This document shows positions 26,102 to 39,028 of a stretch of 64,000 nucleotides of DNA, piece after piece. A program made the position numbers and the translations under genes. This stretch comes from a phage. Position 1 is the first letter of the stretch. Each line of letters starts with the position of its first letter. Under the pieces are notes generated by a model. That model saw only the letters and a list, made by a program, of their open reading frames with translations. It searched no databases and had not been told where the DNA came from. The stretch lies in sequence record PZ445454.1. One strand, written 5' to 3'.

Positions 26102-26401
26102 TTAATCTGCCAACCTTAAATTGAAATTAACACCAAATTTTTCACATACTTCCAACATATACTCAAGGGAGACGTTACCAGTGAGATGGATTATGTTGGA
26201 TACACGAGCCTGAGAGATACCACAAATTTTAGCAACTTGCTCTTGAGAAAGACCTCTTGATTTAATCTCTCTCTTAAAACGATGTGCAACAAAGTCTCTC
26301 ATTTCGTCTACATCCATTGGACAAATATAACTCTCCATTTCAGCCTCTCTATCAGCCTCCCAATCATCTTGTGGGGCATAAGGGTCAAAAACCTCATTCA
26401 T
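26102..26401 (-). CDS. helix-turn-helix DNA-binding protein (putative transcriptional regulator)
   Basis: LSQEQVAKICGISQARVSNI HTH motif; start chosen at internal ATG (MNEVFD) with RBS GGAAGAAGAAAG; track ORF extends to 26431. Confidence 0.5.
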   Translation of the reverse strand: MNEVFDPYAPQDDWEADREAEMESYICPMDVDEMRDFVAHRFKREIKSRGLSQEQVAKICGISQARVSNIIHLTGNVSLEYMLEVCEKFGVNFNLRLAD

Positions 26402-30512: not shown

Positions 30513-30551
30513 TTTGTCACCATTAATGCACTTCCAACCACGATTTACCAA
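29985..30551 (-). mobile_element. freestanding homing-endonuclease gene inserted at 3' end of DNA polymerase gene
   Basis: HNH-AP2 ORF abutting and overlapping polymerase gene end. Confidence 0.5.
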
Positions 30552-33252
30552 CCTTGCCAGTACCAGTTACCAGTGTTTCACTCTTTAGTCCTAAGTTCTT
30601 AGAGGCTTGCCCGTAATACCAATCAGTGACAGCCTTCACCTCTGCCGTCATACTTTCTGGGCATTCCCAACTCGTCTCGTCGTGATAGGAGCACAATAAA
30701 CGAGCACCTATAGCTGGTTTGCGACCGTTCAACTTCATCAAACCTTCGTCAATCATACGACGGCAAGCAAGGTTAATTGCCTCGTTCTGAATCTGACTTT
30801 CCGAACCCATGAGCAAATAATTCAATAACTTATGTGGAGATTTACACCACAACCAAGCTCCAGCAACCTTTACAAAACCCCCTTTAGAGATTGCAGCAGT
30901 CTTACCAAACACCTCTTCAAGTGCCTTTTTAGTTGCTTTGTAGTCAGCTTCCAAGTCATCTAACAGCTTCTTAATTTTAGGTAAACGAATAAAGTAAGTC
31001 TGTTTAGTCAGTGCGCCTTCCTGAGTAGTTGCAGCTTTAATCGTCTTAGCAAACTTCTCATCCCCTGCACCGAACAGTAGTGCATAGATACCATTCTTAG
31101 CTTTCTTACGACCTTTGCTAATCTCATGAAGAAGACTCTCATCCTGAGTAGCTCGACAAGTCAAGATGTCCTGCTCATCATTCAAGCTAAAGTAAATACT
31201 GTTCAGGGTGTGTGCATCAGTCCCTGAATAGACAACGTACAGGTCATTCTCAGAGTCATAGTGAAGGTACTTATCAATCTCTGGGTTGAGATACTCATCG
31301 AAGTGTTTGCAGTAATAGCGTCCATCTTCTTGACGAGTAAACTCAATTTCTTCTTTACCTTGCGTTACCGCTTTGGTGAAATCTTTATCACCCATAAAGT
31401 TACAAAGAAGAACTAACTGGGCTGAGTTCATGTCTACAGAGACAACGTTAGTACCTTCCTCACAAATCCACACTGCCCTCATTGGTTCCCCATAGACAGC
31501 AGCACCAGACGGTACGTTTACAATACCATATTGTGTCATACGTCCAGTTGAAGTACCAAACACCATTGCACCAGCACTAAGGCGACCATCAGGACGAATC
31601 TGGTTCAACCAACCTTTTTCATCATCCTTTGAGTTCTCAATAGTTCTGCGTCTGTGCATCAAAGTGTAGTATTTCGCAATCTTCTGTCCAAGCTCACCTT
31701 CAATCGTATCATAAGATGATTCAGTAAGTTTTGGTGAAGTACGGATTAAGCAAGGCTCAAGCAAATCTGTGTACTTCTTCACAGACCAGTTATGCTCAAT
31801 GTACTGTACACCTTCATGTTCAACATAACTCAAGCCACACCGCTCAACCATTTCCTGCCACTTAGGATGTTTTGTAATCATCTTTTTATTGTCTTTGAAA
31901 CGACAAACTTTGACAGGGCGACCATCAGAGTCTTTCTTGTAGTTCCAGTCATCTGGAATCCAACCAACTGATTTCAAGTAGTCTTTAACAACTGCTACCT
32001 GAGTCATACGAGAAACTTCAAACTCAATTGGTGTATACGGTGCATCAATCAAACCTGTGTAGCGACTTGACTCAAGTTCAAAGTGGTTAACAACGTGACT
32101 GTTATAATACTTCACAGTTTTAACTGTTTTTACTGGCTTCCAATCTTTGCATTTCTTACCCATCTTTGCATTCAACTCATTGCAAATTGCACGAGCATCC
32201 TTCATTGCTACAAAACCTTCCTTGTACTCTTCACCAGTTACAGTGTTGGTTGGTGTATAGCAATTCCTTTTTTCAATGTTAAAAATCTTTGTAGTTGGCT
32301 TACCAAATGGCTTGATTTCATATGTTTGCATCTCACCATTACGTACCTGCTGACGATACTTTGTCTTAGGGTACTTGGTAATTCTTTTCAGTCCATCTGC
32401 ATGACCAAATGTTTCAACATACTCATTCCAAGCTTTTGCAAACTCTTCTCCAGTGACTTTACCTTTGGTCTTAATAGTTGGAGGAAGATGTGGTTCAACC
32501 TCTGAAGCAAGCTCATTAGTCAACTTGTCAAGTTCCTTTACATGGAACTCCATAAGCTCTTTATCAGCTTTCCAACCATTAATAGCTTGTTGACTCATCC
32601 AGAAAGATGTTTCTTTAGCTCGCATGTAGGTTTCATAAGTATCTATACCACACTTCTTAAGCTTGAGATATTCATTATCAAGTGCCCGTTTAGTTTTGGC
32701 GTTAATACGAATATCTTCTACAACACGAGTGAAGATTTCTGCATTCCACACACCCCAATGCTCAATCTCTGGTTTACGAACACCAACACGAGCACCCCAT
32801 GCAGCCAAACCATGAGCACCTTTATAACCCTTTGGAGTTGGTCTATCCATCCACTGAACACGAGACTGGATAAGAGAGTCCTGAAAGAAATTACTCCACG
32901 GTTTACACTTTGGATTATCAAAGTTCCATAAATCCGGTGCAATGTGATTGAAAACCCACCAGTCATAACCGAGGCCATTATGGATACAAAGACGTTTTGC
33001 CTTTAACGCAAACTCAATACCTTCACGTAAACCACCCTTAATGTACTTAGTGTACTTGTGACCGAGGATAGGCTCATCTGTAAAGACCCATACAGGCGGC
33101 TCTTCATCGTCAGATTTATAGTCTGCAAAGGCCATTACGTGAACTTTAGTGAACTCAAGGAGTAAACCATCAGTTTCTGTATCACCAACCAAATGTAAGT
33201 TTTTAAAATCTACGTTTTCCATTTTTACTCCCTCTAAAACCATTAACCTCAT
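30523..33252 (-). CDS. DNA polymerase, family A, with 3'-5' exonuclease domain
   Basis: Exo I DTETDG; motif A-like VSVDMNSAQLVLL; motif B-like KAKNGIYALLFGAG; motif C-like YHDE; 909 aa. Confidence 0.8.
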   Translation of the reverse strand: MRLMVLEGVKMENVDFKNLHLVGDTETDGLLLEFTKVHVMAFADYKSDDEEPPVWVFTDEPILGHKYTKYIKGGLREGIEFALKAKRLCIHNGLGYDWWVFNHIAPDLWNFDNPKCKPWSNFFQDSLIQSRVQWMDRPTPKGYKGAHGLAAWGARVGVRKPEIEHWGVWNAEIFTRVVEDIRINAKTKRALDNEYLKLKKCGIDTYETYMRAKETSFWMSQQAINGWKADKELMEFHVKELDKLTNELASEVEPHLPPTIKTKGKVTGEEFAKAWNEYVETFGHADGLKRITKYPKTKYRQQVRNGEMQTYEIKPFGKPTTKIFNIEKRNCYTPTNTVTGEEYKEGFVAMKDARAICNELNAKMGKKCKDWKPVKTVKTVKYYNSHVVNHFELESSRYTGLIDAPYTPIEFEVSRMTQVAVVKDYLKSVGWIPDDWNYKKDSDGRPVKVCRFKDNKKMITKHPKWQEMVERCGLSYVEHEGVQYIEHNWSVKKYTDLLEPCLIRTSPKLTESSYDTIEGELGQKIAKYYTLMHRRRTIENSKDDEKGWLNQIRPDGRLSAGAMVFGTSTGRMTQYGIVNVPSGAAVYGEPMRAVWICEEGTNVVSVDMNSAQLVLLCNFMGDKDFTKAVTQGKEEIEFTRQEDGRYYCKHFDEYLNPEIDKYLHYDSENDLYVVYSGTDAHTLNSIYFSLNDEQDILTCRATQDESLLHEISKGRKKAKNGIYALLFGAGDEKFAKTIKAATTQEGALTKQTYFIRLPKIKKLLDDLEADYKATKKALEEVFGKTAAISKGGFVKVAGAWLWCKSPHKLLNYLLMGSESQIQNEAINLACRRMIDEGLMKLNGRKPAIGARLLCSYHDETSWECPESMTAEVKAVTDWYYGQASKNLGLKSETLVTGTGKVGKSWLEVH

Positions 33253-33282: not shown

Positions 33283-33312
33283 TTGACAATGTACTTGACA
33301 AGGTGTTAATCT
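33283..33312 (+). promoter_or_regulatory. tandem TTGACA -35-like hexamers in divergent control region
   Basis: agTTGACAatgtacTTGACAaggtgttaatct; -10 assignment ambiguous. Confidence 0.3.
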
Positions 33313-33394
33313 TTGCGAAGTGGGTTTTTACTTAAAAGGTTACTTAACAGTTTAACTATACAGATACTTTAAAACTCTTAAAAGATTATTTAAT

Positions 33395-33435
33395 AGCTTT
33401 TAAAAAGCTTTAAAGTATAACGTATAGAATACGTT
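33395..33435. promoter_or_regulatory. two palindromes (agctttt-a-aaaagct and aacgtat-aga-atacgtt, latter containing TAGAAT) 45-85 nt upstream of first plus-strand early gene
   Basis: read directly from sequence. Confidence 0.5.
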
Positions 33436-33479
33436 AAGATAAAAGATTAAAACTTAATAGTTACTTAAAAGAGGCTTAC

Positions 33480-33902
33480 ATGCAGAAAATGTTTGTTCAC
33501 CCAGACATAGCTGACTTTGTTAGAGCTTTGCAGAAGTTGGAAGAACTTGACATTGCTGCTCAACGGGAATATGCTCACCATCACAGGAGAATGGTTGATA
33601 TACAACATGAGATAGAGTTATCAGAAGACTATGAAGATGACTTAAAATGCTCTGTGTTTGAGCATATGAAAGATGTTGCTACGGCGAGACGTAAAGCTAA
33701 AGACACAGTTGCTTTACTAGATTCTCTTAAAAAGAGGTTGCAAAGTGGTACAGACCTGTGTAATCTAGCATCACTGATTAACGATGTTGAAACTTCTTGG
33801 GATAGGCACTATTATCCGCGTTCTGAAAAGACACTTGACTTTTCTTCATCAGAAAACTTAAAATGTTCTAGAAAGAAACTTAACCAACTGAGAGAGAAAT
33901 AA
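33480..33902 (+). CDS. hypothetical early protein
   Basis: 140 aa, charged/coiled-coil-like; RBS AAGAGG. Confidence 0.45.
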   Translation: MQKMFVHPDIADFVRALQKLEELDIAAQREYAHHHRRMVDIQHEIELSEDYEDDLKCSVFEHMKDVATARRKAKDTVALLDSLKKRLQSGTDLCNLASLINDVETSWDRHYYPRSEKTLDFSSSENLKCSRKKLNQLREK

Positions 33903-33903
33903 T

Positions 33904-34704
33904 ATGAATATCGATGTAGAAAAGATGCTTGAAGAAAAAGGTATTGACGAAGCGTTCTTAATCAATGCCGTAGAAATCATGGCTATGATTCTTCGTGGCA
34001 ACAACTACACAGAACAGTTTATGCCTGCAAGTTATAACTTGCCTGAAGACAAGTCTGATAACGGTGCTTTTGCAGAACAGGTCAACATGATGCTTTGCGA
34101 CAAAACACTCGCTTTAGCATCTATCGTTGTAGGTGTTGATGCTCTTGCAGAGTTCATTTTTTATGAGATGCAGAAAAATGACTATATTGCCATGACCACT
34201 GAAGAAAAAGACTTGCTACTACTCGCAGGTAATGATGAACTAATTGACCTGTTAATTTCATCAACAAGTGCTGTTATGGCTGCTCTTGAGAAGCGTATGG
34301 AAGAGAAACTTTCACGATATGAAAAGCTTGATTGGGGCGTAGAAGAATTAAGCCCACGAATCAAGGAGATTATCCAGCAAACTAAAGAGTCTTTGGAAGA
34401 AGCTGTTGAAAATGACTCTGTAGCTGATATAGAACCACTTCAGGTGAAAGTTGCACTGATGATTCCAGCTATCTCTACGATGATGAATATCGTTGCACTA
34501 ATCCAGCTTTCACAGATGATGGGTGTGAGTATTGAGTTCATTGAGGAGATGACTGGCGGTGTTAGTATGCAAGCAATCAATGATGTTTTGGTGAACATTG
34601 GTGCTTCAATCATTGAAGAGAAACTACGCATTAACTTCGGTGATGATTTTGTGAAGCAACTCTCAGCTATGGCTGAAAAAGAGTCTGCTGAGCAACTGCA
34701 CTAA
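33904..34704 (+). CDS. hypothetical acidic early protein
   Basis: 266 aa, strongly acidic. Confidence 0.45.
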   Translation: MNIDVEKMLEEKGIDEAFLINAVEIMAMILRGNNYTEQFMPASYNLPEDKSDNGAFAEQVNMMLCDKTLALASIVVGVDALAEFIFYEMQKNDYIAMTTEEKDLLLLAGNDELIDLLISSTSAVMAALEKRMEEKLSRYEKLDWGVEELSPRIKEIIQQTKESLEEAVENDSVADIEPLQVKVALMIPAISTMMNIVALIQLSQMMGVSIEFIEEMTGGVSMQAINDVLVNIGASIIEEKLRINFGDDFVKQLSAMAEKESAEQLH

Positions 34705-34721: not shown

Positions 34722-34748
34722 AAGCCTCCTTAGTTGGGGGCTTTTTAG
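34722..34748 (+). terminator. rho-independent terminator
   Basis: aagcctcc ... gggggctt hairpin then TTTTT. Confidence 0.55.
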
Positions 34749-34765
34749 TAATTAATGGAGATAAA

Positions 34766-35509
34766 ATGAGTAATATTATCGCATTTACTGGAAAGGCACG
34801 TTCTGGAAAAGACACCTCATGTTCTATTGTGAAGAACATCTTAGAGGATGAGTATGGCTACAATGTTGAAGTAATGGCCTTTGCAGACAACCTTAAACTA
34901 TCTGCATCAAAGATATTTGACTTGACTTGGAATGACCTGTACGGTGAAACTAAAGAGACTCCACAGGTTTTTGACTTATCATATCCTGAACTGATGTTTA
35001 AAGTTACGGAAGCTATGGAGTTCACCTTCAGAGATGAACGTTACCATATGGACTTCAAGCTTATGTCAGAGTTAACCGGACGATTAATCATGGAGCTTAA
35101 GAAGGTTGCTAAACCGACTCTATTGACACGTCTGGGGTTTAGTAAAAAGTATAAATTCTCATCAAGACAAATTCAACAGATTTGGGGTACTGAAGTTGTC
35201 CGTAAAGTAATGGGCGACAAGTTCTGGTCTAAAGACCTTGAAAAAAGAATGGTTAGATTCCATGAAATGTGCTCACTTAGAAATCAATATGGTTTTGTCT
35301 TAATCAGTGATTTAAGATTTGACTCTGAAGCTGAATGGCTGAGTAGATTTGCACACCAAACTATTGAAGTAAAAAGAGACAATGTGGACAAAGTTTCATC
35401 ACATGTTTCAGAAAATGGTATTTCTACAAAATATGAGCGTGACATTATTCATAATAATGGTACTCTTGCAGACCTTGAGAACAAGCTAAGAGCCATCATT
35501 AAAGTTTAA
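34766..35509 (+). CDS. deoxynucleoside monophosphate kinase
   Basis: N-terminal P-loop FTGKARSGKDT resembling T4 gp1-type dNMP kinase. Confidence 0.6.
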   Translation: MSNIIAFTGKARSGKDTSCSIVKNILEDEYGYNVEVMAFADNLKLSASKIFDLTWNDLYGETKETPQVFDLSYPELMFKVTEAMEFTFRDERYHMDFKLMSELTGRLIMELKKVAKPTLLTRLGFSKKYKFSSRQIQQIWGTEVVRKVMGDKFWSKDLEKRMVRFHEMCSLRNQYGFVLISDLRFDSEAEWLSRFAHQTIEVKRDNVDKVSSHVSENGISTKYERDIIHNNGTLADLENKLRAIIKV

Positions 35510-35517
35510 AAGAGAGA

Positions 35518-35718
35518 ATGAAGATGAGAGTAAAAGACAATTTTAAAGTTATTGACCACCGTTTAGTGGAACTCTCATCTCTTTCCAATGAGGTAATGAT
35601 TGAACGTCTTAAGAGAGTTGAATCACGAAGGAAAGAGATTGCAGATGAAATTCATGAACTGGACAAGATTGAAAATGGATTGAGGGCAGAACTACAACGA
35701 AGAGGTGCTAATGTCTAA
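35518..35718 (+). CDS. hypothetical small coiled-coil protein
   Basis: 66-aa ORF. Confidence 0.4.
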   Translation: MKMRVKDNFKVIDHRLVELSSLSNEVMIERLKRVESRRKEIADEIHELDKIENGLRAELQRRGANV

Positions 35719-37696
35719 AGGTCGTAAATTGAAAGAGGCTGGTCAGTTTGTTGGTCATTGCGCATGTCCACGTTGTGGTTCATCAGATGCTGGTTCAATC
35801 TATCATCATGACGATGATTCTTATTCAATGACTTGCTTTAGTTGTAACAAAGGTTTCCCAGAATGGGATTTTGATAAAGGACAAATCGTGAGCACTTATT
35901 CTACTGGTTCAGACAATAAAAACCGTACTTTCCGTGGAATGGATTTAGACGATGTAAAAGAAAACCTAGAAGCAATGGACTTGAAAGATAGGAAGATTCC
36001 TGCAAAAGTCCTTGAACGCTTAGGTATCAAGGTTGACATTGACAGTGACGGTGAAATTGATGCGCACTTCTATCCAACTTACAAACGTAATGAAGATGGT
36101 AAGCTAGAACATGTTGGCTACCGTGTTCGTCACCGTTACCCAGAAGACCATCCAAAAGAGCACCTACGTGGTAAGCTAAAAGACTTTTCAGGTGGTGTTG
36201 GAGACATTAAAGGTGAACTGGCAATGTTCGGTTCATGGATTGCTCCAGAAGGTGGTAACCGTCTATTCATCTGGGAAGGTGAGATGGAATGTGCGACAGC
36301 AATCTATATGACCTCTCTTGCGATTAAAGACAAGTCTCGTCGTAAGAATTACTGTCATGTATCTGTTCCGTCAGGTGCAAACATCAAGTCTATCAAAGAT
36401 AACTATCAGTACATCACATCATTTGATGAAATCTACTTGTGCTTTGATAACGATGAAGCAGGTGCTAAAGCTACCAAAGAGGCTGCTGGTATCTTACCTA
36501 TTGAGAAGGTTCGTTTATTCCAGTATCCAGAGGGTGTAAAAGACCTTAACGAATGGTGGACAAAGTTCTATAAAGAGAAAGACACAGTTCTGGAAGGATT
36601 TAAGCAGCGTATCTACAACGCACCTCGTTACTGTCCTGCTGGTATCAAGAACTTTGCAGATGGTTTTGAGGCAATGAAGAATCGTGGTCAGATTCCATTG
36701 ATTCCTTTCCCAGAATCTTTCGGGGATTTGAACAGACTGACTTACGGTGGTTATGGTTTGGGTGAGATTACGACTATTGCAGCACCATCTTCAGTAGGTA
36801 AGTCAGCTTACACTCGTGAGATGATTTATTCAGCTTGGAAAGAAACTGATTACAATATCGGTGTAATTCCTGTAGAAGATACTTACGAAGAACTTATGGA
36901 AATGCTCTGTGCAATCCACCTGAGCAAGCAGATTTCTGAGATTCCTTATGACGAACGTGATTGGGATGAATTGAAGGAAGCACACGCAGAACTGTCTAAA
37001 GGCCGTCGTATACATATCGTTGACCATCAAGGGGCAATTGACCAAGATAACCTGCTGGAATTTGTTGACTATCTTGTTAACAGTTTAGATTGCAAGATTA
37101 TCATTCTTGACCCTATTACATTGGCTCTGTCACGTTCCGATACGGATGAAGAGGAAGTTTTGTCTGAGCTATTGCGTCGTTGTAAACGCTACCAGTATGC
37201 ACAGGTAAACGTCTGTCACGTTCGTAAGAGTGCAGGTGGTCAGAAAGCTAACTCTGAAGGTGGAGATATCTCTGAAGAGGATATTAAAGGCTCTGGTGCG
37301 TATTTCCAGATTTCTATGAACAACATTCTGTTAATGCGCAACAAGGTTGACCCAGACCCTGTTAAGAAAAACTTGACAAAAATCAAGTTAACTAAATGTC
37401 GTCGTCACGGTAAGTCAACGGGTATTGCTGGTCATACTTGGTACAATCCAGATACAGGGCGTCTCATTAAAGCATCTGGTTGTGGAGTTGACATTGATGG
37501 TGCAGCAGAAAATATCCGGCAACAGTTTGGTATTGGTGAGGCTGAAGACCATTACGATGACTCTTTGCCACATTATGAGGATGAAGTGTTTGACCGTGAG
37601 ACTGGTGAAGTCTATACTGATGAGCAGCGTCAAAGCTCAACGATTCCACCTGTATTAAGTGAGGATGCAGATGACTGCCCGTTCGAAACTGAGTGA
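35705..37696 (+). CDS. bifunctional DNA primase / DnaB-family replicative helicase
   Basis: N-terminal zinc finger CACPRCGS...CFSCNKG; TOPRIM-like FDNDEAG; helicase Walker A APSSVGKSAYT and Walker B IIILDPIT. Confidence 0.75.
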   Translation: MLMSKGRKLKEAGQFVGHCACPRCGSSDAGSIYHHDDDSYSMTCFSCNKGFPEWDFDKGQIVSTYSTGSDNKNRTFRGMDLDDVKENLEAMDLKDRKIPAKVLERLGIKVDIDSDGEIDAHFYPTYKRNEDGKLEHVGYRVRHRYPEDHPKEHLRGKLKDFSGGVGDIKGELAMFGSWIAPEGGNRLFIWEGEMECATAIYMTSLAIKDKSRRKNYCHVSVPSGANIKSIKDNYQYITSFDEIYLCFDNDEAGAKATKEAAGILPIEKVRLFQYPEGVKDLNEWWTKFYKEKDTVLEGFKQRIYNAPRYCPAGIKNFADGFEAMKNRGQIPLIPFPESFGDLNRLTYGGYGLGEITTIAAPSSVGKSAYTREMIYSAWKETDYNIGVIPVEDTYEELMEMLCAIHLSKQISEIPYDERDWDELKEAHAELSKGRRIHIVDHQGAIDQDNLLEFVDYLVNSLDCKIIILDPITLALSRSDTDEEEVLSELLRRCKRYQYAQVNVCHVRKSAGGQKANSEGGDISEEDIKGSGAYFQISMNNILLMRNKVDPDPVKKNLTKIKLTKCRRHGKSTGIAGHTWYNPDTGRLIKASGCGVDIDGAAENIRQQFGIGEAEDHYDDSLPHYEDEVFDRETGEVYTDEQRQSSTIPPVLSEDADDCPFETE

Positions 37697-38170: not shown

Positions 38171-39028
38171 ATGTCTAAAGTTGTTAAAATGAAAGCTCCG
38201 GTAGAGAAGTACAACGGTACTGAACGTCAAACTCTGCGTTACCTTCTGAAAGATGTCTGGTTTTATTACCTGAACACTTCACCACGTCCGGGAAAAGGTA
38301 AGTCCATTGATAAGAAATTCCCAGGCAAAGACTGTAACTACAGCGTTTCAATTCTGGCAGAAGATGGTAACAAGCTGTTTAAAGAGTTTACTAAGTCTAA
38401 GAAAAACCCAGAAGGTTGGGATAAAGTTACTACTGAAGCAGTTGATGCAGATGACTTCGAAGAGAAGTTTGGTTGCAAACCACCATTTGAAGCAGATACT
38501 TACTACATCTTGAAAGTAAGTCGTGCAGCAGCTTATAAAGATGGTGCTGTGTGGACAGCTAAACAGTCATTCCCTGTAATGCTGATTGAAGAAGTAAATG
38601 GTAAGCGTGTAGCTGTTAAACAGCCGATGAAGAAAATCAAAGCTCAAGCATCTGACAAACATGAAGATGATAAGAACTATGATGTAATTCACCCAGATAT
38701 TGCAGTTGGTAACGGTTCTTTTGGTAGTGTGATTCTCTCTACTCACTTCTACACTTTTGAGAATAACGTTCTGACAAAACCTATTCAGGAACAGTTTATC
38801 ATTGATACTCTTGTACCTTACACTGGGGGTAACGGTGCTAACGGTGAACCTGAACTGGATGAAGATGAACTGGCTATGCTTGGTCTTGATGGCGTTGAAG
38901 ATAACGGTGAAATCACTGAAGAAGATGCAACAGACCACAAACCTTCGAATGACTCTGATGATGGTGATGACGAAGACTTGCCGGACCCAGATGACGAAGG
39001 AGAGGAAGACTTCGATACAGAAGACTAA
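38171..39028 (+). CDS. ssb: single-stranded DNA-binding protein
   Basis: 285 aa with extremely acidic C-terminal tail DDGDDEDLPDPDDEGEEDFDTED; own promoter and terminator. Confidence 0.6.
   Translation: MSKVVKMKAPVEKYNGTERQTLRYLLKDVWFYYLNTSPRPGKGKSIDKKFPGKDCNYSVSILAEDGNKLFKEFTKSKKNPEGWDKVTTEAVDADDFEEKFGCKPPFEADTYYILKVSRAAAYKDGAVWTAKQSFPVMLIEEVNGKRVAVKQPMKKIKAQASDKHEDDKNYDVIHPDIAVGNGSFGSVILSTHFYTFENNVLTKPIQEQFIIDTLVPYTGGNGANGEPELDEDELAMLGLDGVEDNGEITEEDATDHKPSNDSDDGDDEDLPDPDDEGEEDFDTED

Follow-up and report, generated by a model that had tools for sequence, protein, structure and literature searches.

An acidic, fast-evolving protein and its conserved neighbour at the head of the replication genes in Felix O1-type phages

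The closest described counterparts of the two genes examined here are ORF97 and ORF98 of phage Felix O1, registered in RefSeq as NP_944959, 'hypothetical', and NP_944960, 'minor tail protein'. They are neighboured by the divergent polymerase gene ORF96 on one side and by ORF99 (dNMP kinase), ORF100 and ORF101 (primase/helicase) on the other. Whichard et al. assumed divergent promoters in the gap between the polymerase gene and ORF97, and their RT-PCR found ORFs 96, 97, 98, 99 and 101 to be maximal at 25 min, with ORFs 96 and 101 transcribed already at 5 min, and the tail fibre ORFs 76 and 77 to peak at 60 min (PMC3185647). Mass spectrometry of Felix O1 virions, both whole and as gel bands, yielded 17 proteins, Gp97 and Gp98 not being among them (PMC3185647). 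A second described pair, agp047 and agp048, is found in phage SUSP1, which belongs to another genus (Suspvirus); these proteins are 75% and 42% identical to the pair studied here and their genes stand in the same order. In SUSP1 a CRISPRi-ART screen classed agp048 as 'Fit' (score 1.58, p=0.029, 7 guides), as one of only 19 such genes out of 138, together with the polymerase, the exonuclease and agp054, the homologue of Felix O1 ORF104, while agp047 was 'Not Fit' (0.39) (PMC11879866). The authors treat the label 'tail protein' of agp048 as ambiguous, and neither a mechanism nor a single-guide validation of agp048 was found in the text of their paper (PMC11879866).

Looser resemblances lead to phage T7 and to two kinds of small proteins. 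The neighbours of our pair are of the same type as the members of the T7 replication module (gp1.7 kinase, gp2.5 single-strand-binding protein, gp4 primase-helicase, gp5 polymerase, gp6 exonuclease), namely a family-A polymerase, a dNMP kinase, a gp4-like primase-helicase, an exonuclease and ORF104 with its gp2.5-like acidic C-terminal tail. T7 is without a known counterpart of ORF97 or ORF98, and an accessory role next to such a module is deduced from position and fitness alone. The DNA mimics T7 Ocr, ArdA, T7 gp5.9 and lambda Gam are, like ORF98, acidic and non-enzymatic; they are early or middle phage proteins, and T7 places such genes inside its replication block. ORF98 differs from them in having no sequence or profile similarity to them, about half their charge density and two to five times their size, and in being needed on a restriction-less host. 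ORF97 is like factors of the Gre/DksA type in that an antiparallel helical hairpin is predicted for it, acidic at the tip and bearing a basic patch. The likeness goes no further, since ORF97 shows no profile match to them, has neither a globular or zinc-finger domain nor a Cys4 motif, and has longer helices.

We analysed a stretch of 64,000 nucleotides (the window). When 1.8 kb around the locus was compared with phage records, 254 of them matched, almost all Felix O1-like myoviruses (Felixounavirus) with 90-98% nucleotide identity, and on this similarity the window is a Felixounavirus genome, its nucleotide identity to the relatives of Felix O1 being 95-98%. An earlier note on this DNA had described the interval 33480-34704 as two genes, for proteins of 140 aa and 266 aa, that are first expressed from a divergent control region, had seen both proteins as acidic, predicted helical and free of enzymatic motifs, and had suggested host takeover or DNA mimicry because these are frequent roles of first-expressed acidic phage proteins. 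Its coordinates are exact, the interval being made up of precisely these two genes. They are orthologues of Felix O1 ORF97 and ORF98 (99% and 93% amino acid identity) in the same order and spacing, with nothing substantive different, and we use the Felix O1 names for them. The features of the locus are collected in Table 1.

Table 1. Features in and around the ORF97-ORF98 pair, in window coordinates.
Feature	Position	Strand	Remarks
Family-A DNA polymerase (Felix O1 ORF96 counterpart)	30523-33252	-	transcribed divergently from ORF97
Promoter-like element of the rightward unit (putative)	33283-33312	+	sequence read; conservation; MZ726791 annotation
AT-rich leader/intergenic region with repeated CTTWWAAG-type motifs and short palindromes	33328-33471	+	
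140-aa protein, Felix O1 ORF97, PHROG 4039	33480-33902	+	ORF list and profile match
266-aa acidic all-helical protein, Felix O1 ORF98, PHROG 4251	33904-34704	+	database label 'minor tail protein'
Hypervariable cassette of ORF98, residues 94-120	34183-34263	+	22 of 27 sites vary within Felixounavirus
Terminator-like GC hairpin followed by a T run	34722-34753	+	stem 34726-34740, tail CTTTTTAG; after ORF98, before the dNMP kinase gene
dNMP kinase (ORF99 counterpart)	34766-35509	+	
66-aa ORF	35518-35718	+	between kinase and primase-helicase
T7 gp4-type primase-helicase (ORF101 counterpart)	35705-37696	+	

ORF97 is the first gene rightward of a 227-bp AT-rich gap (25% G+C), on whose other side lies the polymerase gene. 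Its stop codon TAA (33900-33902) is separated by 1 nt from the ATG of ORF98 at 33904, and a Shine-Dalgarno-like sequence stands before each gene, with GAGAGAGA upstream of the ORF98 ATG. PHROG profiles match the full length of both proteins (4039 with E=4.4e-83 over residues 1-140, 4251 with E=1.9e-143 over residues 2-265) and homologues of both genes occur in about 260-300 phage records. The order polymerase / ORF97 / ORF98 / dNMP kinase / primase-helicase is common to Felixounavirus, Suspvirus, Mooglevirus and metagenomic relatives. ORF97 and ORF98 are real genes kept across the Ounavirinae under purifying selection. The genes and their families are already catalogued, one of them with published fitness data, and their mechanism is not described. 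What is new here is the description of a variable acidic position after ORF97 and of a hypervariable cassette in ORF98, the restriction of acidity to one of the two proteins, and the case against the label of ORF98.

Several observations on other genes of the window were made in passing. The polymerase is a single ORF of 909 aa in the window, whereas in Salmonella phage HMD-P8 (L006:1352-4319) the annotation gives it two CDS about 230 bp apart, which may reflect a frameshift or an intron or be an artefact of annotation. A 285-aa protein further along the rightward strand (38171-39028, +) is Felix O1 ORF104 (PHROG 3877), which ends in ...DDGDDEDLPDPDDEGEEDFDTED, is extremely acidic there and resembles in this the C-terminal tail of gp2.5, the single-strand-binding protein of T7. 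The SUSP1 homologue of ORF104, agp054, is annotated as hypothetical and was 'Fit' in the screen (PMC11879866), and ORF104 may be the unannotated single-strand-binding protein of the module. On the opposite strand a 99-aa regulator of the HTH_3 (XRE) type (26102-26401, -) corresponds to Felix O1 ORF85, 'transcriptional regulator'. A 2026 preprint identifies Bas63-035 as the trigger of the DRT7 defence system; we rejected ORF97 as a candidate for this trigger, as gene order points to the HTH regulator ORF85, and by gene count from the terminase the ORF85-type regulator is probably the Bas63-035 counterpart.

The control region upstream of ORF97 carries two tandem perfect -35 hexamers TTGACA (33283-33288 and 33295-33300), accompanied by imperfect -10 candidates, either GTTAAT (33305-33310, 16-nt spacer) or TGt-TAATCT (33304-33312, 18-nt spacer). 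CTTGACA is invariant in seven Ounavirinae lineages and MZ726791 has a promoter annotated at the same site. A simple promoter scan of the window did not pick up the element, because its -10 is weak or imperfect. The element looks like a sigma-70-type (host-type) promoter and is considered putative. In the leader that follows, CTTWWAAG-type motifs start at 33331, 33377, 33408 and 33464, TTACTTAAAAG being present three times, and four of the 19 matches of this type in the whole window thereby sit within 141 bp. All Ounavirinae lineages examined have an array of CTTWWAAG- or YTWAACAG-type octamers after the conserved TTGACA and ahead of the first gene, with loci elsewhere at L012:5749-5950, L016:4844-4975, L004:4366-4483 and L014:4866-4983. 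Such arrays might serve as operators, as an origin of replication or as a structured leader; that the repeats are binding sites for ORF97 or ORF98 was rejected because arrays persist in lineages without each of these proteins. At the distal end of the pair, two relatives (MZ726791 and Mordin) have a terminator annotated in the same place as the hairpin of the window. Since the promoter-like element and the terminator bracket ORF97 and ORF98, the pair looks like a short unit that heads rightward transcription. The proposal that these genes are the first to be expressed is therefore borne out only in part: it has the conserved TTGACA element upstream in its favour, but the RT-PCR maximum in Felix O1 is at 25 min and not at 5 min (PMC3185647).

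The view that both products of this unit are acidic is correct for the 266-aa protein, with a pI of 4.20 and a net charge of -29, and mistaken for the 140-aa protein, which is near neutral (pI 6.38, net -2) and acidic only locally, in residues 44-54. ORF97 is at least 99% identical in 170 records and its dN/dS (against Felix O1, HMD-P8, SUSP1 and Mordin) is 0.02-0.12, with values of 0.02-0.03 included; by these measures it is among the most constrained proteins of the region, and for it the premise of the acidic-protein idea fails. It is present in all genera sampled. A profile search gave 32 clusters of 136-152 aa, except for one 93-aa fragment, on contigs of up to ~92 kb, many of them short. 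Against Pfam only sub-threshold coiled-coil noise was obtained. AlphaFold2, run on a shallow alignment, predicted four helices with a pLDDT of 75.5, which gives a usable model of a long hairpin (residues 8-50/53-88, tip at 51-52) plus two helices. The tip of this predicted hairpin is flanked by seven acidic residues in 44-54, and a basic belt is formed by H35-R37 and R70-K74. Many His, Asp, Glu and Arg residues are invariant in the family, and the invariant residues form the clusters H35-R36, V39-D40, Q42-H43-E44-I45-E46-L47-S48-E49, Y51, H62 and R70-R71-K72-A73-K74-D75-T76. ORF97 would then be a coiled-coil hairpin under strong constraint, acidic at its tip and girdled by a basic belt, and on this model its probable role is that of an adaptor or regulator docking on an enzyme of nucleic acids.

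ORF98 contains 49 D+E against 20 K+R, which amounts to a charge of -0.11 per residue, and has the lowest pI of the 77 likely ORFs of at least 80 aa in the window. AlphaFold2 on a shallow alignment predicted 11 helices with a pLDDT of 52.6, for which reason the tertiary fold is not usable and is too poor for mapping of surface charge. The predicted secondary structure of both proteins is all-helical, as had been proposed. The lack of enzymatic motifs is likewise confirmed, as Pfam, NCBIfam and PDB sequence and profile searches with both proteins returned no family above noise, ORF98 matches no family of Pfam-A at E <= 1, and no catalytic-type pattern was found among the residues conserved in its family. 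In comparisons with known folds, Foldseek searches of the PDB and BFVD retrieved for both proteins only their own family or generic coiled coils. A C-terminal block FGDDF...AEKE is conserved in ORF98, and so are two hydrophobic helices (Kyte-Doolittle 1.6-1.96). We considered and rejected an integral membrane protein on the basis of Hessa energies, the lowest 19-residue sums being +2.9 to +5.9 kcal/mol in all 11 of the 11 family members. As a separate observation, many of the proteins found at this position, the C-terminus of ORF98 (34687-34701) and those of the same-position proteins in L004, L007, L012 and L015 considered together, end in a hydrophobic-His sequence (QLH, QIH, TIH, TLH, VLH, VVH or PVH), even across families without detectable homology. 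Such an end may be a docking tail. Felixounavirus alleles of ORF98 also differ by a 4-residue indel just before this end (266 vs 270 aa).

In its evolution ORF98 is the fastest gene of the neighbourhood. Its dN/dS is 0.15-0.37 against the four phages named for ORF97, and between genera it retains 39-43% identity as compared with 93-96% for the primase-helicase. When 1.84 billion representative proteins were searched exhaustively with its profile, only ten matched, all of them Ounavirinae-like. The most distant full-length member, of 277 aa, occupies the same position on an 87-kb metagenomic contig that is without ORF97, and the two genes occur independently of each other. The variation within Felixounavirus is concentrated in the hypervariable cassette of Table 1, where dS reaches 1.6-2.1 as compared with 0.12-0.5 in the flanks and omega is 0.17-0.29, and at least four allele types of the cassette exist among otherwise near-identical genomes. 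By these rates the cassette is a set of old alleles swapped by recombination and not a recent burst of positive selection. No association was found between ORF98 allele classes and host genus. In other lineages ORF97 is followed by something else: by a second family in Pectobacterium phages and one metagenomic relative, by a third family in Erwinia phages, with an extra 187-aa acidic ORF, and by nothing before the kinase in Yersinia phage P778, where ORF98 is absent. The same-position proteins across lineages are 259-283 aa long with a pI of 4.2-4.8. Comparison of ORF98 with those of Pectobacterium and Erwinia phages by BLASTP, hmmsearch and hhalign produced co-linear, non-significant alignments (hhalign E 0.03-0.6, probability <2%), and as far as these sequence methods reach, the position after ORF97 is filled by at least three unrelated acidic families in the Ounavirinae.

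The name 'minor tail protein' is given to ORF98 by PHROG 4251 and by more than 100 GenBank/RefSeq records. An experimental origin of this label could not be found, since in RefSeq of 2016 the protein was still 'hypothetical' (PMC4837284). The cryo-EM atlas of phage Bas63 modelled 22 of at least 23 virion gene products, and one helical density of C3 symmetry at the puncture-apparatus tip has no protein assigned, the authors pointing to a product of the baseplate module (PMC12609058). ORF98 is not in these 22 modelled proteins, and neither ORF97 and ORF98 nor their profiles matched any PDB chain, those of the Bas63 virion included, at E <= 10; in the same comparison the capsid protein of the window, used as control, matches Bas63 9ncf_A at 3.9e-250. 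ORF98 is located in the replication module behind a sigma-70-type promoter, with the tail genes about 10 kb away, and RT-PCR groups it at 25 min with the replication genes, which is neither the location in a morphogenesis module nor the late expression of a tail gene. That ORF98 is part of the virion, as a minor tail protein or otherwise, or assists morphogenesis and then leaves the particle, has in its favour the database records, the one free Bas63 density, and the fact that scaffolding proteins are likewise acidic, helical, essential and absent from mature virions. Given the absence of ORF98 from the 17-protein virion list of Felix O1 (PMC3185647) and the other findings above, such a function is very improbable for ORF98 and its reading as a tail or virion protein is largely refuted. 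The label appears unsupported; ORF98 appears to be absent from the virion, to be produced together with the replication genes and to be required for infection.

This has a possible bearing on a published comparison of the near-identical Felixounavirus Citrobacter phages Eifel1 and Eifel2, which differ in plaque and lysis behaviour and of which one lacks 12 bp of the gene for a 'minor tail protein', within a helix (PMC12892995). That protein may be ORF98, because ORF98 is the only product so named in positions 20,000-69,249 of the Felix O1 RefSeq record (49 kb inspected). If the Eifel gene is ORF98, the explanation through adsorption offered for it would be doubtful (PMC12892995).

The SUSP1 screen also missed the primase-helicase, so false negatives are common in it. 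Simple polarity is unlikely for agp048, if not formally excluded, because guides against the kinase gene downstream and against ORF100 scored 'Not Fit'. NEB10beta/DH10B served as the host (PMC11879866). ORF98 is unlikely to be a pure anti-restriction decoy of the Ocr kind, because its homologue is needed on a restriction-less host. We take NEB10beta/DH10B to be without hsdRMS, mcrBC and mrr, that is without type I and type IV restriction, and presumably recA1 and RecBCD+. Pfam-A includes models of Ocr, ArdA and Gam, and the charge density of Ocr or ArdA is about twice that of ORF98. With this host, the empty Pfam-A search and the low charge density, the anti-restriction form of the acidic-protein proposal is disfavoured for the 266-aa protein. 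The earlier note had named as contrary to its proposal that the proteins be structural, or dispensable without host interaction; neither was found, the tail label being unsupported and the homologue not dispensable.

According to the explanation that we rank first, and hold tentatively, ORF98 would be a non-enzymatic replication accessory. ORF97 and ORF98 would be two unrelated, Ounavirinae-restricted, non-virion proteins made from one short transcript, which would start at the conserved sigma-70 promoter, end at a leaky terminator and head the rightward unit of replication and nucleotide metabolism. ORF98, acidic, all-helical and required for productive infection, would serve a T7-like module of family-A polymerase, gp4-type primase-helicase and gp2.5-like ORF104. 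An intracellular role around DNA replication is proposed because of its position, co-expression, fitness effect and non-virion status, and from these we infer both the replication role and its partners, other proteins that it would bind at the stage of DNA replication. This is in accordance with the conserved gene order, the bracket of promoter and terminator, the joint RT-PCR maximum, the fitness of agp048 and the absence from the virion. It is at odds with the lack of similarity to known replication accessory proteins, with the empty fold searches and with a divergence far faster than that of the supposed partners, and its knockdown evidence comes from a 42%-identical homologue whose ORF97 neighbour was 'Not Fit'. 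Replacement or loss of ORF98 in sister lineages is more in keeping with an accessory or host-interaction gene than with a core part of the replisome. Rapid divergence, cassette polymorphism, replacement and loss are typical of host-interaction genes, and this is why host takeover, minus its anti-restriction form, stays a close rival, though somewhat unlikely in itself.

In host takeover ORF98 would bind and neutralise a host protein of DNA or RNA transactions (e.g. RecBCD, RNA polymerase or a protein of the nucleoid), perhaps through nucleic-acid mimicry. It is the most acidic protein of the window, non-enzymatic, non-virion and the fastest-evolving of its neighbourhood, its cassette consists of old alleles exchanged by recombination, and its position is filled by at least three unrelated acidic proteins and is empty in one lineage. 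T7 embeds gp2, gp5.5 and gp5.9 among its replication genes, and the need for the homologue on a recA1, RecBCD+ host is compatible with an essential inhibitor. The same protein has, however, no Pfam match at E <= 1, carries only -0.11 charge per residue, is larger than typical mimics, is needed without type I or type IV restriction and falls into allele classes that are not associated with host genus, and its 140-aa partner has a near-neutral pI and is conserved to an extreme degree. None of the analyses presented here gave a result that positively supports a host-takeover or DNA-mimic role. It is improbable that the pair are regulators of transcription, with the ORF97 hairpin docked on host RNA polymerase in the manner of Gre/DksA and ORF98 acting as a diverged sigma-like factor or an appropriator, by which the polymerase would be switched to middle/late promoters. 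Felix O1 encodes neither an RNA polymerase nor a recognised modifier of polymerase, its temporal control being unexplained (PMC3185647), the head of an operon suits a regulator, and the predicted hairpin (8-88) has the acidic tip and the invariant basic H35-R36 and R70-K74. Yet neither protein matches the Pfam models of GreA/DksA/TraR or of sigma-70 regions at E <= 1, Gre/DksA is not among the best 50 PDB fold matches listed, none of which is significant, ORF97 is without a zinc finger or globular domain, ORF97 and ORF98 occur independently, and agp047 is 'Not Fit' in SUSP1 (PMC11879866). The probability that remains belongs to functions outside replication, takeover, transcription and the tail. 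We also considered that the fast-evolving acidic position of about 270 aa, with at least three families and a recombining specificity cassette, marks a new fitness-critical factor that would act as an essential inhibitor on a conserved enzyme of host DNA transactions or else organise the replisome with an exchangeable specificity; the idea is speculative and rather unlikely.

Phages of the Felix O1 type serve Salmonella typing, biocontrol and therapy, and the tail-protein name of ORF98 is carried in their genome records (more than 100), in the PHROGs and in dependent papers. One paper lists the knockdown phenotype of an ORF98 homologue among structural genes, and another, if it concerns the same gene, offers the speculation that adsorption is altered by the loss of four residues. 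The evidence gathered here corrects this label for a protein that appears to be non-virion, encoded among the replication genes and expressed with them. The idea of an acidic early protein fits only one of the two proteins, and that one, ORF98, appears to be a fitness-critical orphan heading the replication operon.
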